Source: a virus. From it: a stretch of 64,000 bases of DNA. This document shows positions 7,380 through 40,441 of the stretch, piece after piece. The first letter of the stretch is position 1, and each line of letters begins with the position of its first letter. The notes beneath the pieces were generated by a model. That model saw nothing but the letters and a program-made list of their open reading frames with translations, did not search any database and had not been told where the DNA came from. Both the position numbers and the translations under genes were made by a program. Where the stretch lies: positions 1-64,000 of the IMG/VR virus record IMGVR_UViG_3300038393_000909. One strand, given 5' to 3'.

Positions 7380-8549
7380 CCGACCCAAGTCTCAAGGAGG
7401 AAAGCGCCACTAAGCAAAGCGCGCATCCTCTATGCCACGCCGTTTGCAATCGTGCAAGCGGTTCGATTCGATTTCTCGAGAGCCAGCCATGTACGAGAAG
7501 ACGGTGAGGTATGGCGAGTCGGGCGTCATGAGCGACGAGCGGTTCGAGATCAAGGCCGTGACCCACGACGAGGAAGGGATCCACTGGGGCGCCAACAGCT
7601 TCGTTCGCCTACGCGATGAGGATAGCGGCGAAGAGTGGACACTCGACCAGGAGAAGGCTCAGAAGCTGGCGAACGCCCTGCTCGGAGCCGTGCGTTACCT
7701 TAAGAGATGGAGCTGATCATGAACCCCGACATCGACCGCCTGTGCTCAGCCGCACAGCAGCCCGCCTATGCCTACGCCCTCAAGGTTACCTCAGAGGGTG
7801 CCGGTGGATGCGGGGCTGAACTCGAAGCCATCGTCCGCGCCATCCTGACCGAGATGAAGACTATGAGCGTTCACATGCTCCAAGCCAGGGTGTCGGCTGA
7901 GAACCCCGCCTTCATATGGAGCGATGTCATCGACCGGATATTGGAGGGGAACTATGACTGAGACCGCACGCGCCCAGCTGGTGCGCTACCTGCGCCGCGA
8001 GATCAACGCCTTCGATCCCGAGGTGGATGAGGCTGATGCGGGATGTATCGAGTGCACATGCGGCACGGTCCCGATCCACCTGGAGACTGGACTGTGTGAG
8101 CGACATGAGGCCGAGGCGATCCTGCTGAAGATGAAGAGGACGCGATGAACGCAGACAAAAATAGTTTCGGATACCCAGCGCCTGAAGTTCCCTGCCGCGT
8201 ATGCGGTGGGTTTAAGAACAACCAGAGCGAGCCGCGCTTTGGGTACGTGGTCTGCGAGGATCACCAGGACGTACAGCCCATACACATACCACTCGAGGCG
8301 CCGAAGAGAGGCAAGAAGGATTGAGATGAACGTAGACATGACACGGCTGTGTGAGGCAGCCAAGAGGGCTCAGCCCGGTCTTACGCTGCCTGGATGCCGC
8401 GACGTCGTGCATGCCGTGCTCACCGAACTGCGGGCTATCTACAGCGAACGCCGGGACGACGACGTGGCGGACTTTGTGGCGTCGTTCCTTCTCGATAAGA
8501 TAGTGATGCTGCTCATCACGGAGCCGCTGGTGGTTCACAGCAACGACAA

Positions 8550-9214: not shown

Positions 9215-9574
9215 ATGCCGCTCAATCTTTCAGAGCTTGAACAACATGGCCTGGGCTACGTGGCGCAGCTGGTCCGCGGCGGGCGCTACATTCCCGACAG
9301 CGTCCTGGTCCCGGCAGGCGAAGGTCGATACACGGAGGCGCGCGAGGCGTATCATGAATGGTGCCTGACGGACGCGTGCCGCGAGTTCACCAACGACGTG
9401 CTCGACAACGTGGCTGAGTATGGCGGCTGGAAAGATCCGACCGATCCGGCAGAGGTTCATGCCTACCTCGACAGCGCCTGGGCAGACCACGAGAACTGGC
9501 GCGAGTTGACAGAGGACGAGAAGCAGGCAGCCGCGCGCATCACGGCAGAGAAGGTCAAGTCCCGACTTGCATAA
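9215..9574 (+). CDS. hypothetical protein
   Basis: GGAG RBS. Confidence 0.6.
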   Translation: MPLNLSELEQHGLGYVAQLVRGGRYIPDSVLVPAGEGRYTEAREAYHEWCLTDACREFTNDVLDNVAEYGGWKDPTDPAEVHAYLDSAWADHENWRELTEDEKQAAARITAEKVKSRLA

Positions 9575-10097
9575 GCTGCGGCGCTGAGGCGGCGAAGTCA
9601 CAGGAGCCTACGAGTTCGAACCCGTAGGCCACGCACACCCCATCCACGATCGACGCGAGCGCCCGCCTGCACATCTGCTGCACAGCCCGGCGGGTGATCT
9701 TCTCGTCGGGGCTCAGGATCCTCCTGAGGGCGTCGTCTGGGTATCCACGCAAGTGACCAGCCAGGGTCTGACGCTTGAGGCCGACGCGGTTCCCATCGAC
9801 GAACCGCAGCCACGACAGAATCGTCAGCACCCGTTCCCATTCCGTTAGGTCGAGGACGCAGGTTGCAGGCGGTATGTCCCGCAGCATCGAGGGGTGCTGC
9901 TTCAGGGCAGTGCCGAGACCGGTGACGCGGTCGTTCAGCGCCATGACATAGCGGGACGGACGCGCGTCGAAGCTCATCAGCGCGGCACCCAGTAGCGCCT
10001 CGACCACATCCTCATGGCTGCACTGGCCCTGCTTCTCGGCAGCAACCACGAGCGCGGCGCGCTGCAACCATTCCAGAACCATATCTGTTTGCGACAT
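9555..10097 (-). CDS. hypothetical protein, possible transcription regulator; probable paralog of 16172-16735
   Basis: Shared L(S/D)WLRF motif and C-terminal HTH-like segment. Confidence 0.5.
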   Translation of the reverse strand: MSQTDMVLEWLQRAALVVAAEKQGQCSHEDVVEALLGAALMSFDARPSRYVMALNDRVTGLGTALKQHPSMLRDIPPATCVLDLTEWERVLTILSWLRFVDGNRVGLKRQTLAGHLRGYPDDALRRILSPDEKITRRAVQQMCRRALASIVDGVCVAYGFELVGSCDFAASAPQLMQVGT

Positions 10098-19687: not shown

Positions 19688-19809
19688 AGGGGATAGATGC
19701 GTAGACGCAGGTGCGAAGCGGGCTGCCGTTCCGCATACGTTTCAGCGCGCCGGAAGTCAATCATTAATGCGCATGAGATACAGGGGATCGACCCCGCGTG
19801 GAGCTTGAT

Positions 19810-20784
19810 ATGAGCGTGCAACTGACAGCCGAACAGGAGATCGTCCGCAACAGCATCCGTCAGTGGATTCGCGGCATCTGCGATAAGAAGGGCTACAAGC
19901 CCGCCAACCTCGCGAAGGAGAGCGATTTGTCCGCATCGACCGTGCTTCGTCTCCTGAACGATAGCGATTATCGTTGCACGCCAAGCATGACGACGCTGCA
20001 GAAGATCTCCTCTGCGACTGGGTACGCTCTTCCTGACTCCCTTCTTAATTCGAATGCGCCGTTCACGATCTACACCGGGGCGCAGCCGGGTCGTAAGAGC
20101 AACGCCGAGAAGGCGGCGCGTGAGACGCTCCATCTTCCCCGAGCTAAAGAGGCTCAGAGCGAGGAGGAGGTGATCGCGCAGAACGTCGAGCGCCTGAACA
20201 AGGGCATCGCCGAGCTAATGCCGAACAGAGATCGGACTGAGGTCTCCCATGGCACGGGTGCTGGCAAGGCTAAGGCCTTCGCTGACGCGGTCGTGAGCAG
20301 GGCGCGTCCGGCCGAGCGGGAGAATCCGGTCGAGGAACCCGCTCGGTTGAAGGCAGAGGTCGAGATCGAGCCTCAGCCGAGGGTATCCAACTCCGGTGCG
20401 CGCATGATCCCGCTCTACACCACGTCGGCGTTCCCGGCTTCGTTCCAGGCACGTCGAGGTGATACGAAGTCTCCGGTCACCGAGTGTCCTGAGATCCTTG
20501 GCGAGGACACCACGGCGTTCGCCGTGAAGATCGGCGACAACACCCTTGGCCCGGTGATCAAGCCCGGCTCCCTGGCGTTTGGTTCTCGGTATCGAGATCC
20601 TGCGGCGGGCGACACGGTCTATATACGTCGGACGGACGGGCGATCGTTCGTGCGTGTCTGTGCCGACATCAATGAGAACGGTGTCGTTGTCGTAGACGGG
20701 AGTCGAAACGAGACGCTTATAGCTTTCGATGACATCGAGGATGTGGGTGTGATCGGACTCGTCGAGATGGTCGGGTTCTTCTAG
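19810..20784 (+). CDS. CI-like repressor: XRE HTH + long linker + degenerate S24 domain
   Basis: ANLAKESDLSASTVLRLLN HTH; FAVKIGDNTLGP..PGS..DPAAGDTV C-terminal domain. Confidence 0.75.
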   Translation: MSVQLTAEQEIVRNSIRQWIRGICDKKGYKPANLAKESDLSASTVLRLLNDSDYRCTPSMTTLQKISSATGYALPDSLLNSNAPFTIYTGAQPGRKSNAEKAARETLHLPRAKEAQSEEEVIAQNVERLNKGIAELMPNRDRTEVSHGTGAGKAKAFADAVVSRARPAERENPVEEPARLKAEVEIEPQPRVSNSGARMIPLYTTSAFPASFQARRGDTKSPVTECPEILGEDTTAFAVKIGDNTLGPVIKPGSLAFGSRYRDPAAGDTVYIRRTDGRSFVRVCADINENGVVVVDGSRNETLIAFDDIEDVGVIGLVEMVGFF

Positions 20785-20864
20785 GCCGTTTGCATGTTTG
20801 CTTGAATTCAAGCGCGTCGCAAACGGAGTTGCGCTACTGCAAACGCTGAGCGCAAATGCGCAAA

Positions 20865-20896
20865 GCCCTCGCCCTAACCGGCGGGGGTTTTTCTTT
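20865..20896 (+). terminator. rho-independent terminator
   Basis: GCCCTCGCC-loop-GGCGGGGGT followed by TTTTCTTT. Confidence 0.75.
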
Positions 20897-20962
20897 GTCC
20901 ACAGGGTTGGAACGGCTTGCTGCCTGTTTGCATTAGTTGTAACGAAGGGGAGGAGGTGGCCG

Positions 20963-21826
20963 ATGCAAATCAACATGCGCCGTTTGGTCGGCGTCGGTAT
21001 GAGCCAGGAGGTTCGCGAGGCACGCCAGGGCTGCATCGGTGGCTCGGACGCCCGTATCATCATGTCGGGCGATCAGAAGGCGATCGAGACCCTGTGGCGT
21101 GAGAAGCGCGGTGAGAAGGTGCCCAAGGATCTCTCCGAGGTCATCCTCGTCCAGCTCGGCAACGTCACCGAGAACCTGAACCTCGCCGTGTTCGAGGGGC
21201 AGACCGGTTCATTCGTTGCGGGCGAGCAGACACGGCCGGCGTACGAGGAATGGCCTATCGCCATGTCGACGCTCGACGGGCTCAAGTTTAATTCCCAGGA
21301 TGAATTCCTGGCTGGTGTCTCGCCGCTTGCAATCGTCGAGGCGAAGTTTGCCTTGCCGTTCCGGTGGACGCTGCAGACATCGATAGACAAGCACTACGCA
21401 CAAGTACAACATAACATGATGGTCACCGGTCTCAAACGTGGCTGGTTGTCTATCATCACGGGCGGTGGCCAGTACGCAAAGGTTGAGATCGAAGCTGACT
21501 ACTTCTACCAGATGGCGCTGCTCGATGCTGAGCAGGAGTTCTGGAAGTGTGTCGAGACTGGCCGGCGTCCTGGTGCACCTGAGATCGATGTACCTGTCCT
21601 TGAGGTCGTCGACGAACCGATAGACATGAGCACTAACAATGCCTTCGTTGATTTGGCTATCACTCTGCAGGAGACCTGTAAGTTCGCAGCTCAACATGAG
21701 AAGGCCAAGAAGGACATTAAGGAGTTGATGCCTAAGGGAGCCAAGATTGCGTTCGCAAGGGGCGTGACGATCTCCAGGGCTGTTAACGGGCGCATGACGG
21801 TCAAGGTAGACGGAGAAGCTGCGTGA
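20963..21826 (+). CDS. YqaJ/lambda-exonuclease-like recombination nuclease
   Basis: IGGSDA, LWREKRG, STLDG, EAK, YAQVQHNMMVTG. Confidence 0.88.
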   Translation: MQINMRRLVGVGMSQEVREARQGCIGGSDARIIMSGDQKAIETLWREKRGEKVPKDLSEVILVQLGNVTENLNLAVFEGQTGSFVAGEQTRPAYEEWPIAMSTLDGLKFNSQDEFLAGVSPLAIVEAKFALPFRWTLQTSIDKHYAQVQHNMMVTGLKRGWLSIITGGGQYAKVEIEADYFYQMALLDAEQEFWKCVETGRRPGAPEIDVPVLEVVDEPIDMSTNNAFVDLAITLQETCKFAAQHEKAKKDIKELMPKGAKIAFARGVTISRAVNGRMTVKVDGEAA

Positions 21827-22024
21827 TCCTGCCCCTGATCGTTTGCATTTCCGCATACATGGCTCTTGCTTTTGCCATGGCATTGGCATTAATTGGAATG
21901 GCAGGCGTCGCAGCGGACGCTGTCGGTATCCTCCCCTCCTCCCTGGTGGCGCCCTTCTACGGGTCGGCACTCATCGGAACGGCAGGGGCAAACATCATCG
22001 CACACAGTCTCTAAGGAGGACGCA

Positions 22025-22897
22025 GTGGCAGAGGTCAATTCCAACCTGAAGATCTGGGAGAAGGTCCAGCGCACTGACCCGAAGCGGACTAAGCCGTTCA
22101 AGGGTGCTGGTGGTTTCTCGGGTACAGCGATCAATGCAACCTACCTCGCACAGCGTGCGACCGAGGTGTTCGGTCCCATGGGCCTTGGCTGGGGCATGAA
22201 CATCATCGAGGAGAAGATCCTCGACTTCGGTGATGACAAGATCCACTCTCTGCGTGGCGAGCTGTGGTACGTTCTAGACGGCAAGACAGGATCGATCCAG
22301 CACTTCGGTCAGACGAAGATCTGCGGAAAGAACAAGCACGGTGCCTTCGTCGACGAGGATGCTCCGAAGAAATCACTCACCGACGTGATGTCGAAGTGTC
22401 TTAGCCTTCTCGGCTTCGGAGCTGACGTTCATCTTGGGCTCTATGATGACAACCGGTACGTGACGCATATCACGAACCAGATCGCTGATGAGCGCAGGGC
22501 TGCCCGTGAGGAATCTAAGGCTTCCAAGGATGCTGATGCCGAGCCCAAGGAAGATGCCAGCCAGGGTGATGGTGAGCAGCAGGCCAGCGACAACGTTGTC
22601 CCCCTGCAGCGCAAGGCCAAGGCTGAACCCGAGGTCCAGGCCGACCCGCAGACCGGTGAGATCGGGTCCGAGCCTCTCGACCTCGATGCCGAGATGACGG
22701 CGGCCGACGTGATCAAGAAGAAGATCGACGCCTACGACGATGCCAAGGCGCTCGGTGAGTACATGAACGATCGCGAGACCCAGGCGGACATGTTCCGTCT
22801 CGGCAAGGAAGTCCGTGAGCAGGTTCGTGACTACGCGATCAAGCGTCACGTCGAGCTGCGAGCCAAGGCGAAGGCCGCCGCCATCCCGGCCGAGTGA
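22025..22897 (+). CDS. single-strand annealing protein (Rad52/Sak-like)
   Basis: ATEVFGPMGLGWG, DEDAPKKSLTD..K..S.LGFGADV; lies next to the exonuclease. Confidence 0.7.
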   Translation: MAEVNSNLKIWEKVQRTDPKRTKPFKGAGGFSGTAINATYLAQRATEVFGPMGLGWGMNIIEEKILDFGDDKIHSLRGELWYVLDGKTGSIQHFGQTKICGKNKHGAFVDEDAPKKSLTDVMSKCLSLLGFGADVHLGLYDDNRYVTHITNQIADERRAAREESKASKDADAEPKEDASQGDGEQQASDNVVPLQRKAKAEPEVQADPQTGEIGSEPLDLDAEMTAADVIKKKIDAYDDAKALGEYMNDRETQADMFRLGKEVREQVRDYAIKRHVELRAKAKAAAIPAE

Positions 22898-23776: not shown

Positions 23777-23804
23777 GCGCAAGATAATGCGGCTTAGCTT
23801 GCGT
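23777..23804. other. 11-6-11 inverted repeat, dif/Xer-core-like site
   Basis: GCGCAAGATAA-TGCGGC-TTAGCTTGCGT shortly after a stop codon. Confidence 0.35.
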
Positions 23805-23829
23805 TCGGAATGACCCCGAGGAGGATGAG

Positions 23830-24096
23830 ATGAGCGAGTTATCCGAGATCCCCGACAACCCGCCCGGCTACGGCGACACCGTAGGACGCTGCATCTCGTT
23901 TGACCTTGGCAAGGTGCTCGCGGATGCGATGCGCTTCTGTGACCTAGCTGCCGGCGAGGGCCTGATGCTCAGGCATGATGCGGGCTTCTATCTGGACGCT
24001 GCCGACATCTGCGTGGAGTTCGCCAAGGCGTCGGGTGTTGAGCTTGGCTCACCGGAATACGAGGCGGCCGTCGCGGCGCTTGCGCGCAGCGCATAG
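23830..24096 (+). CDS. hypothetical protein
   Basis: GAGGAGG RBS. Confidence 0.6.
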   Translation: MSELSEIPDNPPGYGDTVGRCISFDLGKVLADAMRFCDLAAGEGLMLRHDAGFYLDAADICVEFAKASGVELGSPEYEAAVAALARSA

Positions 24097-24104
24097 GCCC
24101 GGCC

Positions 24105-24132
24105 TGTCGGCAAAACGGTCCTTATGCCGACA
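24105..24132. repeat. 28-bp res-site-I-like palindrome A1
   Basis: TGTCGGCAAAAC-GGTC-CTTATGCCGACA. Confidence 0.7.
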
Positions 24133-24153
24133 CAGAGGGGCATCGAACTTTTT

Positions 24154-24207
24154 TAGGGCAAATGGCCCTCATGCCCGTTGACAGGGTAGGGCAGATGGCC
24201 CTATAAC
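24154..24207 (+). promoter_or_regulatory. sigma70 promoter overlapped by two TAGGGCA(A/G)ATGGCCCT operators
   Basis: TTGACA 24178-24183, N18, TATAAC 24202-24207; operators at 24154-24169 and 24187-24203. Confidence 0.8.
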
Positions 24208-24251
24208 AGGTTCATCAGCAAGGGCGAATGAGCCCGGCGATGGAGAGCAAG

Positions 24252-24479
24252 ATGACCAAGCGCACTTTCCGGGTCGAGCAGGCTTTCGAATACGGGATCG
24301 GCAACGGCGTCAACGGCGCGGGCCGTCGCCCGAAGGTCACCGGCTTCTACGTCATTGAGAACGAGACCGGCCGGAAGGTGATCGGCGTCACCGCTTCCAG
24401 CATGAAGCCCGCCGCCGTTGATTGGGCTCGCAACAAGGCCGAGCAGCACCTCGACCATATCAGCCGGATGTACGCCTAA
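24252..24479 (+). CDS. hypothetical protein
   Basis: First gene after the promoter, GGAG RBS. Confidence 0.6.
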   Translation: MTKRTFRVEQAFEYGIGNGVNGAGRRPKVTGFYVIENETGRKVIGVTASSMKPAAVDWARNKAEQHLDHISRMYA

Positions 24480-24534
24480 CCACGCAACCGGGCGGGCTCA
24501 GACCCGCCCAACCTCTCATTCGAGGAGATGCGAA

Positions 24535-24732
24535 ATGCCGATGGATCGGTGGGGCTACTACGACGAGCAGGAGGCGCAGGCGCTCGACGCGCGAAACAAG
24601 CGCCTCGTCGAGCGGCTGAAAGCCGGCCTGCCAGACGACACGGCCGAACGGCTGGAACTCGCCAGACAGCGGGCCGCCGGAAACGAGTTCTACGCCCAGG
24701 CGCAAGCGGACAGTGAGATCCCGCTTGATTGA
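24535..24732 (+). CDS. hypothetical protein
   Basis: GAGGAG RBS. Confidence 0.55.
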   Translation: MPMDRWGYYDEQEAQALDARNKRLVERLKAGLPDDTAERLELARQRAAGNEFYAQAQADSEIPLD

Positions 24733-24907
24733 TGATCAATGGCACGTCGAAGTTGAGCAACTCCGCGCCGCGCACCGGGCCGCCGAGGCGCTGATCTATT
24801 CCCTGTTGGGCGACGAAGACGACGAGGACGAGCAAGCCAAGAAATTGCTCGCTTGGTCTAACGCCGCAGCAGCGCTCGACCACTCTACCACCGAGGAGAA
24901 TTAGGCG

Positions 24908-25102
24908 ATGGGCCAGATTGATCGAACCAAGCTCGCGAAGCTCGATGGGCTGATCCAAGACCTGCTCGACGAGATCGAGGACGCGGGCGAAGACGATGTG
25001 GCGGCCGAAGCGCTGTTCGAGCCGCTGAGCCAAGCAAGCGCGGCCCTGCATGCGGTCCTGACAACCTACGCAGTTCTGACGATGCCGCCCGCCAATGGCT
25101 GA
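24908..25102 (+). CDS. hypothetical protein
   Basis: GAGGAG RBS. Confidence 0.55.
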   Translation: MGQIDRTKLAKLDGLIQDLLDEIEDAGEDDVAAEALFEPLSQASAALHAVLTTYAVLTMPPANG

Positions 25103-25316
25103 CCGGCGCATCTACAGCCTCGACGAGCTTGAGGCCATGGCCGCACCTGACGGCACGCGCGGCGACTACCGCAGCGCCTCCGCCTGCCGAGCCCATCGCG
25201 ACGGTGACTGCTTCTGGGCGAAGTGCCCGCAGATTGCCGACGACGAGCCGAACGCTACTGGGCGCCACTGCCCTTTGGACGAGCCGCCGTTCCGGGCGGG
25301 GGACGAGGACGAATGA
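25095..25316 (+). CDS. small Cys/His-rich protein
   Basis: CRAHRDGDCFWAKCPQ..GRHCPLD. Confidence 0.6.
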   Translation: MADRRIYSLDELEAMAAPDGTRGDYRSASACRAHRDGDCFWAKCPQIADDEPNATGRHCPLDEPPFRAGDEDE

Positions 25317-25555
25317 CCGCCGCCCAGCTCCGCGACGCCCTCAAGTCGCTCGGGCTCTCGCAATCAGCGGGAGCCCGCCTCCTCGGCGTGGACGGCAGGA
25401 CCATGCGCCGCTGGTGCGCCGAGCCCGGCCCGAGCGCCCGCGAGGTGCCGCCGCCCGTCGCCCGGTTCCTCTGGCTCATGCAGGCCGCCGGGATCGGCCC
25501 CGCCGAGGTGGAGCGGCTTCTGGAGCCGTTCCTTCGCGAAACCGAAACCCCGTGA
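25313..25555 (+). CDS. XRE-like HTH regulator
   Basis: MTAAQLRDALKSLGLSQSAGARLLGVDGRTMRRW. Confidence 0.8.
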   Translation: MTAAQLRDALKSLGLSQSAGARLLGVDGRTMRRWCAEPGPSAREVPPPVARFLWLMQAAGIGPAEVERLLEPFLRETETP

Positions 25556-25575
25556 AAACGGCCGAATACCCGACA
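25548..25575. repeat. 28-bp res-site-I-like palindrome A2
   Basis: CCCCGTGAAAAC-GGCC-GAATACCCGACA, overlapping the HTH stop codon. Confidence 0.65.
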
Positions 25576-25585
25576 TCAGGAGAAG

Positions 25586-25927
25586 GTGATGAGTGAGCAC
25601 ACGCCGGGGCCTTGGTGCAACATGATTGGCAACGCCATCGGGGCCTATGGCAGCGTCGATACCTATGGCGGCGCAGTGCTGATCCCCGTCGCGCGCGTCG
25701 AGCAGACCGGAGAACAACAGGATAGCGACGGGCGCGTCTTCACGCTCGGCGGCTCCAGTGAGGCAAACGCCCGGTTGATCGCTGCCGCGCCCGATCTGCT
25801 CGCGGCGCTCAAATCCGCCCGCGCTCAGCTTGAGAGCTACGAGGAAGCTCGCAGCGGCGAAAGCTACAACGACACGCAGATCAATGCCGCCATCGCCAAG
25901 GCCGAGGGCAGCGACCACAACATCTAG
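25586..25927 (+). CDS. HTPGPW...ANARLIAAAP family protein (cassette between A2 and A3)
   Basis: Motif pair; RBS directly after site A2. Confidence 0.75.
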   Translation: MMSEHTPGPWCNMIGNAIGAYGSVDTYGGAVLIPVARVEQTGEQQDSDGRVFTLGGSSEANARLIAAAPDLLAALKSARAQLESYEEARSGESYNDTQINAAIAKAEGSDHNI

Positions 25928-25929
25928 TG

Positions 25930-25957
25930 TGTCGGGATACTGGTCGTTTTCACGACA
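25930..25957. repeat. 28-bp res-site-I-like palindrome A3
   Basis: TGTCGGGATACT-GGTC-GTTTTCACGACA, 2 bp after a stop codon. Confidence 0.7.
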
Positions 25958-25977
25958 TCGAAAATGGAGGCCAAGCT

Positions 25978-26268
25978 ATGAGCGATCATAATTATGTCGT
26001 TGGACGTGTCGTGTTCGGCAGCGTCTCGGACAGTCTCTATCGCGAGGCACTAAAGCAGCGTGACAACGAAACGGCACGGGCCAGCGAGAGCGTGGCTGAA
26101 GTGGCTCGCTTGCGCGCCGAGAACGCCCGGTTGCGCGAGGCGCTAGAGGAGGTCCGCGATTGGCATCCGATGTTCAATGGCGGAGTAAAGCGCGACACAG
26201 CGGAAGATCTCGTCGGCTATATCAAGTACCTCCAGGGTGTCGCGTACAACGCGCTAGTAAAACCCTGA
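25978..26268 (+). CDS. hypothetical protein (cassette between A3 and A4)
   Basis: GGAGG RBS after A3. Confidence 0.65.
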   Translation: MSDHNYVVGRVVFGSVSDSLYREALKQRDNETARASESVAEVARLRAENARLREALEEVRDWHPMFNGGVKRDTAEDLVGYIKYLQGVAYNALVKP

Positions 26269-26269
26269 G

Positions 26270-26297
26270 CGTCGGAAAACTGGCCGTTTTCCCGACA
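26270..26297. repeat. 28-bp res-site-I-like palindrome A4 (extra half-sites at 26342 and 26370)
   Basis: CGTCGGAAAACT-GGCC-GTTTTCCCGACA, 1 bp after a stop codon. Confidence 0.72.
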
Positions 26298-26385
26298 TCG
26301 CGCCGGGTCGGTCCCGGAGCCCATCAAAACAGCCCCGATCCTGTCGGGAAAACGTGTCAGCCTATCAAATGTCGGAGAAACGGTA

Positions 26386-26622
26386 ATGGCGAGCAATCCC
26401 GACGACATCTTCGGACCTTGGGATGGGCCGCCCGATCTGGTGAGCGCCATTGCAGCCGAGGTCATGGGCTTGAAGTGGACCCGTGCCGACACCGAGGACG
26501 AACACTGCGACCGCTACGGCGAGGTGCAGGAGGTCGTTGCCGCGACCATCGCCCGGATGCTGGCCGAGCACCCGACGCACGATTTCCTAGCGGCCTTCTC
26601 CCCCGCCCCGGCCGGGGAGTGA
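26386..26622 (+). CDS. hypothetical protein
   Basis: Stop codon abuts empty site S0. Confidence 0.6.
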   Translation: MASNPDDIFGPWDGPPDLVSAIAAEVMGLKWTRADTEDEHCDRYGEVQEVVAATIARMLAEHPTHDFLAAFSPAPAGE

Positions 26623-26835: not shown

Positions 26836-27278
26836 TGGGATTGCGGACATTTCGGCAAGTATTGCTGAGGAGCATTAAATGAAAGCGGCGCACCTTGAAT
26901 ATCTGAAACGTATTGCGACCGATTTAGACCAGATTGGCGCCACAGGCAGAGCTAACCAATTACGGTATATCATCGGTCAACTGTCCGCCCAATCCGCCGC
27001 GCATGATAGGGCCGATGTTGGGGCCGGATGGGTGCTCGTTCCAGCGGAACCGATGCCGGAAATGGTTGCCGCATGGTGGCGCGTAAAGAACACCGGCTCG
27101 ACGGAGCCGGGCGAGACCGGCGAGGATCGCAGCGATTGCGCCGCATACCGGGCGATGGTCGCCGCCGCACCTCGACCGCCGGCAAAAGTTGGGGCCTGAG
27201 TTGGGGCCGGGCCGTTATGGGTTATCCCATAACGAAATTACTTCAACGGCTTAGCGAAGATTTCCGATTTCTGGGATT
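26836..27278 (+). mobile_element. mini integrative element E1 (duplicated 7-mer TGGGATT)
   Basis: 7-mer at 26836-26842 and 27272-27278; arm pairs at 27005/27017 and 27188/27200; IHF-like box at 27239-27256. Confidence 0.75.
26879..27199 (+). CDS. E1 cargo ORF (WVLVPAEP..EM..YRAMVAAAP domain)
   Basis: GAGGAG RBS; reads through the arm repeats. Confidence 0.65.
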   Translation: MKAAHLEYLKRIATDLDQIGATGRANQLRYIIGQLSAQSAAHDRADVGAGWVLVPAEPMPEMVAAWWRVKNTGSTEPGETGEDRSDCAAYRAMVAAAPRPPAKVGA

Positions 27279-27603: not shown

Positions 27604-28079
27604 AGCGATCACGGGCAATTCGGCAAGCATTACACGGGAGTGACAAGTTATGGCGGCTGACCTCGCAGAACTCCGAAGGATGTGCGGAGAATTGGACAAC
27701 CGCGGATACAGTGCGGAAGCGCAAGAGTTTCGCGAGGCCATCGCCGAAATCTCCGCCCTACGCGCCGCGCAGGTTGGGGCCGGTGATGGGGCCGGATGGA
27801 AACCGATTGAGACAGCGCCGAAGTGTGGCAAGCGCATCATCGGATGGGTGCCAGGGTGGGAATACGCCCGCTGCTACGCATTCGTCACAGCCGGCGGCGA
27901 ACCGTTCGGGTGGCGCAACGAAGCCGGTCGCGTGATGGAACACGAACAGCCGACCCATTGGCTGCCGTGGCCCGAACCGCCGCCCGCTGTTGGGGCCGAT
28001 GTTGGGACCGGCACTGATCTACCCGCGTCTGCCTCCTGATACTTCAAGGGCTTAGCGGACATTTCAGGAAGTAGCGATC
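27604..28079 (+). mobile_element. mini integrative element E2 (duplicated 7-mer AGCGATC)
   Basis: 7-mer at 27604-27610 and 28073-28079; arm pairs at 27773/27785 and 27989/28001; IHF-like box at 28040-28057. Confidence 0.75.
27650..28039 (+). CDS. E2 cargo ORF with DUF551-like domain
   Basis: WKPIETAPK...PTHWLPWPEPP. Confidence 0.7.
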   Translation: MAADLAELRRMCGELDNRGYSAEAQEFREAIAEISALRAAQVGAGDGAGWKPIETAPKCGKRIIGWVPGWEYARCYAFVTAGGEPFGWRNEAGRVMEHEQPTHWLPWPEPPPAVGADVGTGTDLPASAS

Positions 28080-28259: not shown

Positions 28260-28681
28260 CGGGGCCACGGAAATTTTGGTAAGTAATCAGCGATGGTGGT
28301 AAATTATGATGGTGTCGCGGAATACATTGGTAATGATTGCGCAAGTTGCGGAGGAGCAAAATCGCAGCAGATTAAACACACCTGTTCGGGTTGAGGCGGG
28401 CGAACTGTCCGCCAATCACGAGGGAGGGGTTGGGGTGAATGTTGGGATGGAAAAGAGCATCGAAACCCGCGCAGCGGATGCCCTGGATGCGATCTACGAG
28501 GAGACGATGAGCAAGCACGTCAACATCGCGAGTTGCAGGGATGCACGTCGCGCTATCATCGTCCAAGCTATTCGCGATGCGCTGGCAGATGTTGGGGTAA
28601 ATGTTGGGGTAAGTGCCCCGCAAGCATAGCCCGGAGCCTGATACTTCAGGCACTTAGCGAGCACTTTGCGCGGACGGGGCC
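28260..28681 (+). mobile_element. mini integrative element E3 (duplicated 7-mer CGGGGCC)
   Basis: 7-mer at 28260-28266 and 28675-28681; arm pairs at 28429/28441 and 28591/28603; IHF-like box at 28642-28659. Confidence 0.75.
28306..28629 (+). CDS. E3 cargo ORF
   Basis: Arm repeats are read as VGVNVG twice. Confidence 0.55.
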   Translation: MMVSRNTLVMIAQVAEEQNRSRLNTPVRVEAGELSANHEGGVGVNVGMEKSIETRAADALDAIYEETMSKHVNIASCRDARRAIIVQAIRDALADVGVNVGVSAPQA

Positions 28682-37703: not shown

Positions 37704-38282
37704 ATGCAAACGGGTCACCCAATACCGACGGAGGGATCTGTGGTTCCGAGCCAGGACCGCCGGAAGCCGCGCAAGCCGCCCATCGGCGCGCTCACGCAGG
37801 ACGCGAAGAACGCCATCATCCGCGATCGGATCGCCGGACGTCCCGCCCGCGACATCGCGAAGGACTGGTTGATCAGCCAGAACTACGTCTGGGTGCTGAC
37901 CCGGCACGTCGCTCACTTGGTGCCGAAGAAGATCCCGCGCGGTAAGAGGGCCGCCATCAAGGCCGCAGAGAAAGAGGAACAGGATCGCGCCATCCTCGCC
38001 AAGCTCCTGGCCGGTGTCCCGCGCAAGAAGGTCATGGCTGAGTTCGGCGTCTCGCGCATGAAGCTTGTCCGTGTGATGCGGCAGTACGGAGACGGTGTCG
38101 TGCTCGGCTATGAGAATCCTCTCGAGGAGGAGATCCTCAATGCCTACGACGCTTGCAAGAAGCCGCACCGCGTGGCGATCCAGGTCGGCGTCGATCCCAA
38201 GACCGTCTACCGCGTCATCTATCGGCGCAGGCGGCTCCAGAATGCGGCGAACAACAACGCGTTCCTGAGGGCGGCGGCATGA
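37704..38282 (+). CDS. multi-HTH DNA-binding protein
   Basis: Three HTH-like segments. Confidence 0.6.
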   Translation: MQTGHPIPTEGSVVPSQDRRKPRKPPIGALTQDAKNAIIRDRIAGRPARDIAKDWLISQNYVWVLTRHVAHLVPKKIPRGKRAAIKAAEKEEQDRAILAKLLAGVPRKKVMAEFGVSRMKLVRVMRQYGDGVVLGYENPLEEEILNAYDACKKPHRVAIQVGVDPKTVYRVIYRRRRLQNAANNNAFLRAAA

Positions 38283-38948: not shown

Positions 38949-39302
38949 ATGTCTGCGGCCATGACGATTACTGACGATACCCCGCTGCGTCTGGCGGACG
39001 CGGTTGTAATTGCATTTCCCCATGGAGGCATGACTGAGGCCGGGCTGCGCAGGGAGGCCAAGCGCGGGCGCCTTGAAATCGAACGGATCGCCGGTAAGGA
39101 CTTCGTCACCCTTGCCGCGATCCGAGAGATGAGAACCCGATGCCACGTCCAGCGAAGGGCGCAAGACTCTGGCTCAGGCCCGAGCGCCTCGACGATCAGG
39201 GACGCGTGCGTGAGCGATCGACATGGATCATCCGGGATGGATCAAAGACGGTCAGCACGGGATGCGCTCCTGAAGCGCGTGCGGACGCTGAAAAGTGCCT
39301 GA
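38949..39302 (+). CDS. excisionase (Xis-like)
   Basis: PLRLADAV..AFPHGGMTEAGLRREAKRGRLEIERIAGKDF; overlaps the 5' end of the integrase. Confidence 0.75.
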   Translation: MSAAMTITDDTPLRLADAVVIAFPHGGMTEAGLRREAKRGRLEIERIAGKDFVTLAAIREMRTRCHVQRRAQDSGSGPSASTIRDACVSDRHGSSGMDQRRSARDALLKRVRTLKSA

Positions 39303-40441
39303 GCGCCTACATTGAGCAGAAGTACCGCCCGGCGCGCAGGCGGCGTGAGATCGAGGAGATCGGGATCGCTGACGTCCTGGCGATCTACCTCGAGGATACC
39401 CGCGAATCCCAGGCCAACAAGCGCGCCTTCGACGGGCGCATCGAGCGCCTCGCTGAATGGTGGGGCGAGAAGACGCTGTCCGAGGTCACGGGCGAGACGT
39501 GCCGGGCCTATGTCGAGCACCGCGCATCCGCCGAGCGACAAGCGGTCAGTGGCAAGCGCGGAGCCGTCGGGAGAAAGGGCACCAGCGGCGGAGCGCGCCG
39601 CGACCTTGAGGACCTGCGCGCGGCGATCAATCATCACCACGGACAAGGACTCCACCGCGAGGCCATCCGCGTGATCCTGCCCGAGAAGGGGGCGGCCCGC
39701 GATCGATGGCTGACCCGGTCCGAGGCCGCGCGCCTCGTCTGGTTCTGCTGGCGCTACCGCGATACCCAGACCTGGAACAAGGGCACGCGCGCCGGCAAGA
39801 GCGTCGTGACCAACAAGCGGTCGCTGCGCCATATCGCGCGCTTCATCCTGATCGGGCTCTATACCGGGACGCGGGCCGGGGCCATCGCTTCAGCCTCGCC
39901 CTATAAGAGCGCCGGTCACTCTTGGGTCGATCTCGAGAGCGGGCGGTTCTACCGGCTCGCCGAGGGCAAGAAGGCGACGAACAAGCGACAGCCGACCGCG
40001 CGCATCCCATCGCGCCTGCTCGCCCATCTCAGGCGATGGTCCAGAGCGACGCAGGGCAAGGACGGGCCGCCCGTCATGCGGACCCATTTCGTCGAATGGA
40101 GGGGCAAGCCGGTCGGGTCGGTGAAGGTCGCTTTCGGCCGGGCCGTGCGCGCGGTCGGCCTGGGCGATGACGTGTCGCCCCACACCCTGCGGCACACCGC
40201 CGCGACGTGGCTCATGCAGCGCGGCGTCGACAAATACGAGGCGGCCGGATTCCTCGGCATGTCGCTCAAGATGATCGACGAGGTCTACGGCCACCACCAT
40301 CCCGATTTCCAGGACAGCATCGACGCGGCGTTCGCGACCCGCAAGCCGGCGAATCAGGGTCCGCACCGCTTCGCCGGACGGCACGTTTCTGTTGGCATAA
40401 CTGTGGGCGTAGAGGGTGACGCCGCCAAGGATATGGTGTAA
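39140..40441 (+). CDS. int: tyrosine integrase
   Basis: YTGTRAGAI (R), KR, SPHTLRHTAATW, VYGHH (Y). Confidence 0.93.
   Translation: MPRPAKGARLWLRPERLDDQGRVRERSTWIIRDGSKTVSTGCAPEARADAEKCLSAYIEQKYRPARRRREIEEIGIADVLAIYLEDTRESQANKRAFDGRIERLAEWWGEKTLSEVTGETCRAYVEHRASAERQAVSGKRGAVGRKGTSGGARRDLEDLRAAINHHHGQGLHREAIRVILPEKGAARDRWLTRSEAARLVWFCWRYRDTQTWNKGTRAGKSVVTNKRSLRHIARFILIGLYTGTRAGAIASASPYKSAGHSWVDLESGRFYRLAEGKKATNKRQPTARIPSRLLAHLRRWSRATQGKDGPPVMRTHFVEWRGKPVGSVKVAFGRAVRAVGLGDDVSPHTLRHTAATWLMQRGVDKYEAAGFLGMSLKMIDEVYGHHHPDFQDSIDAAFATRKPANQGPHRFAGRHVSVGITVGVEGDAAKDMV

Follow-up and report, generated by a model that had tools for sequence, protein, structure and literature searches.

Copies of a plasmid res-type crossover site and an orphan res-like region at gene-cassette junctions in phages

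The first 64 kb (hereafter the window) of a 98,228-bp phage record in IMG/VR (IMGVR_UViG_3300038393_000909; G000) contain a block of small genes punctuated by four 28-bp palindromic sites, which we call A1 to A4. Here we report that these sites resemble the crossover site (site I) of the res regions of plasmid serine resolvases, that A4 is part of a res-like region standing without its resolvase gene, and that the sites mark junctions at which unrelated phages have exchanged genes. The best overall explanation, to which we assign a probability of roughly 0.55, is that they are res-type sites of a plasmid resolvase clade and that the cognate resolvase, acting in trans, swaps the phage cassettes between them. 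Our literature searches found no earlier description of an orphan res combined with site-I-like copies that bound phage gene cassettes.

Results

Palindromic sites of the window

The initial annotation had described four palindromes of a 12-4-12 plan and two extra half-sites at 26342 and 26370. All of these hold at their positions, A1, A3 and A4 being strong and A2 degenerate, and our analysis added an inverted partner half-site. The features are as follows.

A1, 24105-24132: 12-4-12 site resembling res site I, TGTCGGCAAAAC-GGTC-CTTATGCCGACA; strong palindrome
A2, 25548-25575: site-I-like, degenerate, CCCCGTGAAAAC-GGCC-GAATACCCGACA
A3, 25930-25957: site-I-like, TGTCGGGATACT-GGTC-GTTTTCACGACA; strong palindrome
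A4, 26270-26297: site I of the res-like region, CGTCGGAAAACT-GGCC-GTTTTCCCGACA; strong palindrome
Half-site H5, 26342-26353: TGTCGGGAAAAC
Half-site H6, 26370-26381: TGTCGGAGAAAC
Inverted partner half-site, 26396-26407
Orphan res-like region, 26270-26407, + strand: site I (A4), H5, H6 and the inverted partner; position 26404 aligns with the plasmid resolvase start codon

The 12-4-12 plan is common to 20 copies in six sequences. A half-site consists of TGTCGG, an A/T-rich segment and C, and each arm holds to the consensus independently of the other; similar motifs of the TGTCTGATA type occur in Tn3 res oligonucleotides (10.1101/2021.12.07.471667). As dimers, A1, A3 and A4 score 33-36 bits and A2 scores 27. 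A2 was also the best dimer in the 98-kb genome outside the weight-matrix training set (14.2 bits, the next reaching 6.6). All eight strong half-sites of the whole 98-kb genome lie inside 24105-26407, and the consensus at up to three mismatches, which finds A1 and A4, had no match in 100 shuffles. A search of IMG/VR with the exact consensus returned no match because this consensus is too strict, the window's own sites failing it.

The sites are tightly placed relative to the genes. As first described, each lies within 8 bp of a stop codon: A1, A3 and A4 begin 8, 2 and 1 bp past the codons TAG 24094-24096, TAG 25925-25927 and TGA 26266-26268, respectively, and A2 contains TGA 25553-25555. The accompanying claim that every site precedes a ribosome-binding site or promoter stood for A1, which is followed by a TTGACA-N18-TATAAC promoter (24178-24207), and for A2 and A3, which are followed by ribosome-binding sites and then start codons. 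A4 precedes a 110-bp conserved non-coding stretch.

Homology of the A4 region to res regions of plasmid resolvases

When the A4 region was searched against plasmids, it matched intergenic DNA directly upstream of genes annotated as 'recombinase family protein' in M. bullatum and M. fujisawaense, with 72% column identity. Both genes match PF00239 with at least 140 bits and also match HTH_7, and one of these plasmid resolvase genes follows TniA-like and TniB-like genes. The clade is frequent on plasmids of this group, and 26 of the 36 plasmid records retrieved at E <= 1e-60 belong to Methylobacterium or Methylorubrum. We examined five plasmid loci, and in four of them the 28-bp site I begins exactly 134 bp before the resolvase ATG; the M. 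bullatum locus keeps this spacing, and in pMPOP01, pMRAD05 of M. radiotolerans and a leaf-isolate plasmid the site is followed by H5-like and H6-like half-sites. The fifth locus has the accessory part alone in common. The geometry of the window is the same to the base, since 26270 plus 134 gives 26404, the position that aligns with the resolvase start. In an alignment of seven sequences, site I, H5, H6, the inverted partner and the resolvase start correspond, and the accessory half-sites are conserved throughout.

This homology and the 134-bp geometry indicate that the window holds an orphan res: judged by sequence, 26270-26407 corresponds to a complete res that lacks the resolvase gene, and A1 to A3 are copies resembling its site I. 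The features of a res site are thus distributed unevenly. The 12-4-12 crossover site is present, accessory sites accompany A4 only, and a cognate resolvase gene adjoins the site at the five homologous plasmid loci and is missing beside the phage copy. On these grounds we firmly predict that the A sites are res-type protein sites. The initial annotation had come to a res-like assignment as well, and the base-exact match to DNA upstream of PF00239 plasmid resolvase genes bears it out; its label 'Tn3-family' was too specific, the nearest relatives being the plasmid resolvase clade, one member of which stands beside TniA-like and TniB-like genes.

Exchange of gene cassettes between conserved junctions

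As proposed at the outset, the sites bound one 1.4-kb module (24228-25555) and two single-gene cassettes (25589-25927 and 25978-26268). The features of this block, with gene sizes in amino acids (aa) and helix-turn-helix abbreviated as HTH, are listed here.

88-aa gene, 23830-24096, + strand: ahead of A1, between two conserved junctions, 23798-23837 and the left flank of A1
Promoter/operator module, 24154-24207, + strand: operators TAGGGCA(A/G)ATGGCCCT at 24154-24169 and 24187-24202
Promoter after A1, + strand: -35 TTGACA at 24178-24183 and -10 TATAAC at 24202-24207, found by eye
1.4-kb module, 24228-25555, + strand: six small genes, namely five ORFan genes and a terminal HTH gene
Xre-type HTH gene, 80 aa, 25313-25555, + strand: the sole DNA-binding gene inside the array
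Single-gene cassette, 112 aa, 25589-25927, + strand: phrog_1273
Single-gene cassette, 96 aa, 25978-26268, + strand: ORFan
78-aa gene, 26386-26622, + strand: in the place of the resolvase gene of the plasmids, its start inside the last accessory site

Using the HTH family profile, we found a second array in G403, a 55.7-kb IMG/VR record estimated to be complete (its coordinates are given below as L253), and conserved junction strings together with the site pattern led to G406 (70.4 kb), G407 (59.4 kb) and G408 (34 kb). Including G000, arrays are thus present in five phage records, and each of them ends in a res-like region. In each genome the sites are restricted to one array and have a single orientation relative to the genes. 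The five genomes otherwise share almost nothing, and the DNA that they have in common consists of the junctions, chiefly the A4 region (approximately 77-95% nucleotide identity). An A1 homologue is also carried by L176, a plasmid-like soil contig whose ParA gene and adjacent intergenic DNA are 74-82% identical at the nucleotide level to Methylobacterium/Methylorubrum plasmids. Copies of A1 with the same flanks occur in L176 (at 1347) and G403 (L253 5255), and G408 has the left flank only. Directly upstream of the array, several elements carry a winged-helix Rep-like gene (L176 2-1338, L253 3141-3822, L273 5773-6288), which in L176 adjoins the ParA gene.

Comparison of the window with G403 revealed conserved stretches (79-95% nucleotide identity) at 23798-23837, 24090-24260, 25313-25567, 25531-25592, 25895-25959, 25931-25980 and 26282-26403, and every gene body between these stretches is a different gene. 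Another gene occupies the place of the 88-aa gene between the 23798-23837 and A1-left-flank junctions, different genes precede the HTH gene, whose product is 94% identical, the 112-aa cassette gene is replaced by other genes, and a different gene stands behind the ribosome-binding site that precedes the 96-aa ORFan in the window. G403 has six A-type sites, and its additional sites bracket additional genes. The A2 junction is duplicated (L253 ~6238 and 6815) around an extra divergent two-gene cassette, and A3 is present as two copies (L253 7290 and 7547) around an extra 67-aa gene, one copy having the left flank and the other the right flank. The two-gene cassette is found again in G406 with another left neighbour, to which an A-type site links it. 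Gene content between the sites, the invariance of which in relatives would have spoken for operators only, is wholly different in the four other phage records, and the cassette presence and absence that the initial annotation had suggested looking for takes the form of insertions or deletions between duplicated sites and of one cassette with different neighbours.

The sites themselves are mosaic. Among the 20 copies, pairs that share only the right flank have right half-sites with an identity of 0.79-0.83 and left half-sites with 0.43-0.64 (background 0.51-0.71), and where the left flank alone is shared the opposite holds, left half-sites being alike and right ones not. Each half-site is co-inherited with the adjacent gene, and because half-sites follow their own flanks, the homology breaks near the site centres. 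The unrelated genes found between conserved junctions bear out the earlier proposal that genes were gained or exchanged at these sites, and we hold it as firm that the sites mark junctions where gene content was exchanged among unrelated phages.

Further observations concern the junctions of this region. At 23798-23837 there is a junction of another type (..GACCCCGAGGAGGATGAGATG), which contains no palindrome. G403 has this junction at 95% identity and also carries, before another gene, a shortened version of its ribosome-binding site and start motif (GGAGGATGAGATG). Three unrelated genes share the final codons ..(D/N/H)HNI* (CACAACATCTAG), at window 25916-25927, L253 7277-7288 and L253 7790-7801, and one G406 gene has the variant ending ..DHKI*; a site follows directly after three of these four genes and after 22 bp in the case of L253 7790-7801. 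In the neighbouring repeat array of the window, the junctions 26844-26995, 27734-27794 and 28589-28681 are 86-95% identical in G406 and G407, so that this adjacent array belongs to the same shared cassette region. Two of its genes, 26879-27199 and 27650-28039, have an N-terminal domain in common.

Genes of the array and candidate binding proteins

The array belongs to the accessory early region of the phage and is laid out in one direction as junction, promoter-led operon, junction, gene, junction, gene and res, and there is no paralogy among the genes between the sites. The 96-aa ORFan retrieved only itself among 5.8 billion proteins. Homologues of the 112-aa gene are widespread in phages and prophages, and no A-type palindromes flank them at 160 viral and bacterial loci (1.5 Mb), showing that gene and site do not move together.

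The layout of the 24228-25555 module resembles an operon with its own autorepressor. At approximately 20 metagenome loci and in one Bradyrhizobium prophage, HTH homologues are preceded by the same kind of module, TTGACA..TAGGGCC-N4-GGCCCTATAT, and the small genes between this module and the HTH gene differ at each of the approximately 20 metagenome loci. Among the HTH homologues, P0003-P0007 are 64-86% identical. Because the homologues sit behind the TAGGGC module, this module, and not the A sites, is the likely target predicted for the Xre-type HTH protein (25313-25555), and we rejected the latter as the A-site binder, its family co-occurring with the TAGGGC-N4/5-GCCCTA module instead. The Xre-type HTH gene is also absent from G406, from G407 and from the examined G408 locus. 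Anti-CRISPR operons with Aca repressors have been described with a matching layout of promoter and palindromic operators, small genes and a terminal HTH gene (PMC9410906), and by this analogy the resemblance of 24154-25555 to an acr-aca operon may be taken as a lead.

Other candidates were rejected as well. No ParB is encoded, which speaks against a ParB centromere, and the spacings do not fit an ECF, sigma-54 or sigma-70 promoter inside the sites. A Sigma70_r4 match that might have indicated a phage sigma factor lies in a protein of 209 aa that combines two HTH domains with an AP2-like one and is not a sigma factor. G000 encodes two more proteins with resolvase-type or homeodomain-type HTH domains, at ~90.1-90.8 kb (- strand) and at window 37704-38282; one of them is 209 aa long with an AP2-like C-terminus, and the recognition helices of both are unlike those of the plasmid resolvase clade. 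No DNA-binding protein or regulator is common to the compared phage records.

Recombinases of the array-carrying phages

The initial annotation had found no serine recombinase in the window, and this holds for PF00239 and PF07508 in the window as well as in the rest of the 98-kb record. Tyrosine recombinases (PF00589) are present in G000 and G407 and absent from G403 and G406; these two records, lacking an integrase, may be phage-plasmids. The gene in the place of the resolvase differs in each phage. In G403 it encodes a protein of 210 aa (L253 7959-8591) with two HTH_7 domains and no catalytic domain, and one of these domains is 56% identical to the DNA-binding domain of the M. bullatum resolvase (E 4e-18). 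The N-terminus of this protein looks like an HNH nuclease.

Setting of the array in the phage genome

Among the window genes of G000 are those for a contractile-tail sheath, a helicase, a primase and a ribonucleotide reductase. The genes of relevance to the array are listed below.

CI-like repressor, 19798-20784
YqaJ-type exonuclease, 20798-21826: just upstream of the array
Probable annealing protein, 21893-22897: just upstream of the array
Tyrosine integrase, 39140-40441: the only tyrosine recombinase (PF00589) of G000, 13 kb from the array

The closest cultured relative is Bradyrhizobium phage BDU-MI-1, the sheath protein of which is 65% identical. By synteny with this phage, the conserved replication and recombination genes are separated at window 23.4-29.2 kb by an extra block of small genes, and the A-site array falls inside this block. 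BDU-MI-1 lacks the whole block, and no A-type sites were found in it.

Two short segments of G000 outside the window, 84065-84130 and 86171-86239 (66-69 bp), are 95-97% identical to G403 7939-8004 and 9563-9631, the genomes being otherwise unrelated. An AT-rich motif (..TTTGCATTAATTCGAA..) occurs genome-wide (window 21881, 29001, 30026 and elsewhere) and is among the most over-represented 10-mers; BDU-MI-1 has the related over-represented word TTGAATGCAAA.

Discussion

Alternative explanations

Their position just after stop codons would also suit the A sites to a role as RNA hairpins, i.e., as intercistronic terminators, processing sites or mRNA stabilisers, and the palindrome is indeed the predicted fold of A1 (-20 kcal/mol) and A4 (-16 kcal/mol), the right arm of A4 being complementary also to H5 and H6, so that alternative pairings can form. 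The palindromes of A2 and A3, however, are not the predicted fold, the folding z-scores of the sites reach only -0.8 to -1.9, our scan detected no terminator-like site and no U-tract at any A site, and Rfam gave no match. When 17 copies from five sequences were aligned, 69% of cells were paired compared to 71% in shuffles, with no excess of compensatory change, and a structured RNA in the A4 region was rejected for lack of covariation. The most conserved part of the site is its centre, CGGYCG. The absence of pairing covariation and the best-conserved centre argue for a protein or crossover site; the data fit DNA sites and not selected hairpins, and the same sequence stands upstream of resolvase genes, as expected of res. 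We consider an RNA-level function very improbable. A purely regulatory function, with the sites as operators or roadblocks for a resolvase-type DNA-binding protein (a plasmid resolvase in the role of repressor, or a phage protein like that of G403, with DNA-binding domains only) that tunes accessory genes, and with ordinary mosaicism ending at gene boundaries, fares somewhat better and is still improbable. Resolvases repress their own promoters through res, which counts in its favor, and G403 encodes a derivative consisting of resolvase-type DNA-binding domains right beside its res-like region. The sites also lie in short gaps of a co-directional gene block, like stoperators (PMC9283540). Stoperators, however, are asymmetric 13-mers that occur genome-wide and are bound by the phage's own repressor, a pattern not seen here, and no DNA-binding protein common to the compared records could play this part. 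Moreover, half-sites that co-segregate with their flanks, and duplicated sites that bracket extra cassettes, point to exchange at the sites themselves.

The main rival assumes that the sites are kept for another reason, for example because a host or plasmid protein binds them, and that the shuffling is due to homologous recombination, general or phage-encoded, at junctions of 28-130 bp, similar to that at the PeSL elements (promoter plus terminator stem-loop) of T4-type phages. Relaxed recombination by phage recombinases is documented (PMC3945230), as is PeSL-mediated gene shuffling in T4-type phages (PMC2839356, PMC4122927). In the window, the YqaJ-type exonuclease and the probable annealing protein are encoded just upstream of the array, and in the compared records the sites have conserved flanks of 30-170 bp with 77-95% identity. 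When non-allelic sites are compared, the longest stretch of identity consists of the centre and the T-tract, meaning that homologous crossovers would map to the centre anyway. This rival leaves unexplained why the shared element is a res homologue, why a full res-like region ends every array, why there is one array of one polarity per genome and why conservation is best at the centre. The gaps of A2 and A3 fit neither part of a PeSL: they are too short for a promoter, no + strand promoter-like site was found by scanning any A site, and they hold no selected hairpin. Taken together, we regard this rival as unlikely, though clearly less so than the regulatory one.

Proposed mechanism

According to our preferred explanation, a resident plasmid or transposon would provide a cognate resolvase in trans, and this enzyme would bind the A sites and occasionally recombine sites within or between co-resident genomes, such that the gene segments between them are excised, inserted or swapped. 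We infer this action in trans from the phage gene content: with no fitting serine recombinase in G000, G403, G406 or G407, any site-specific action must come from elsewhere.

Several points weigh against a resolvase as the agent. Short-homology recombination would yield much the same pattern. Not all mosaic breakpoints fall within the palindromes: some are at start codons or in last codons, including the ..HNI* endings of the three unrelated genes, and one gene body is 97% identical in G406 and G407 yet has different junctions. Classical resolvases require a full res on both partners in one supercoiled molecule, and accessory sites are found next to A4 only, A1 to A3 having none. The central dinucleotides vary between the sites (GT, GC, AC), which would block many site pairings. 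PF00239 serine recombinases are absent from G000, G403 and G407. G406 encodes one, 24 kb from its array and without an A-type site or other cognate-looking site beside it; being 36% identical to the plasmid clade and having a different recognition helix, it was rejected as the enzyme. Finally, 401 Xanthobacteraceae genomes (Hyphomicrobiales) contained no A-type site, a result that also led us to discard the idea of a host repeat or operator; this was probably the wrong family for a host search, as later matches point to Methylobacteriaceae.

A more far-reaching proposal, which we put forward tentatively and rate below even odds, is that of a resolvase-powered, integron-like phage system. The orphan res would serve as docking site and the site-I copies as cassette boundaries, and with a plasmid or transposon resolvase acting in trans, phages of plasmid-bearing Methylobacterium-like hosts would trade small accessory, possibly anti-defence, genes. 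Accessory and anti-defence regions of phages turn over very fast, which is usually ascribed to illegitimate or homologous recombination of no specified kind. In the present arrays we can say what the junctions are, namely homologues of the sites of a known recombinase, and they are 77-95% identical in otherwise unrelated phages. Should a plasmid-borne resolvase indeed act on them, this would define a route, open to testing, by which genes pass among phages, phage-plasmids and plasmids, and in which phages use a recombinase that they do not encode. An orphan res plus repeated site-I-like copies also provides a search handle for cassette arrays and their cargo in other phages.

Comparison with known systems

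Among the closest known counterparts is the res of small serine resolvases (Tn3/gamma-delta; TniR of Tn5053/Tn402-like elements). It has the same 28-bp crossover site with 12-bp inverted half-sites, an outer TGTC.G followed by an A/T-rich segment and, as at A4, accessory half-sites within ~140 bp; the region homologous to the phage copy lies upstream of PF00239 plus HTH_7 genes, in one case beside TniA-like and TniB-like genes. The phage copy differs in that no resolvase gene adjoins it, that extra site-I-like copies without accessory sites stand at gene junctions, that the centre is G/C-rich (GGYC) rather than AT and that the accessory half-sites include direct repeats. To our knowledge, the A sites bear no resemblance to the proteobacterial dif consensus.

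Cassette-like regions with other kinds of sites offer further parallels. The pdif modules of Acinetobacter plasmids (PMC6449649), some of which are toxin-antitoxin-like pairs, are likewise gene units bounded by 28-bp recombinase sites, one arm of which is better conserved, and are moved by a recombinase that the modules do not encode, as we propose here; the pdif sites are XerC/XerD sites of an 11-6-11 plan with a variable centre, whereas the A sites are relatives of serine resolvase sites, have a conserved centre and stand in one orientation only. PeSL of T4-type phages (PMC2839356, PMC4122927) are also short conserved intergenic elements that flank ORFan genes in a hyperplastic region, with insertion, deletion or replacement of the genes between them in related phages and chimeric elements at the junctions. 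A PeSL combines a promoter with a terminator stem-loop and recombines by homology, whereas the A site is a res-homologous, protein-site palindrome without promoter or selected hairpin, and its array is common to otherwise unrelated phages. Unlike stoperators, the A sites are confined to 2.3 kb and the phages that carry them have no regulator in common.

The overall architecture is also reminiscent of integron arrays, which are likewise one-directional and composed mostly of single small genes, each bounded by a recombination-type site, with one more complex primary site at one end and sites that are hybrids of neighbouring cassette ends. In contrast to integrons, the phage arrays have no IntI tyrosine recombinase, those of G403 and G406 being without any tyrosine recombinase; their sites are conserved in sequence and not in folded structure, and their complex site is found at the downstream end.

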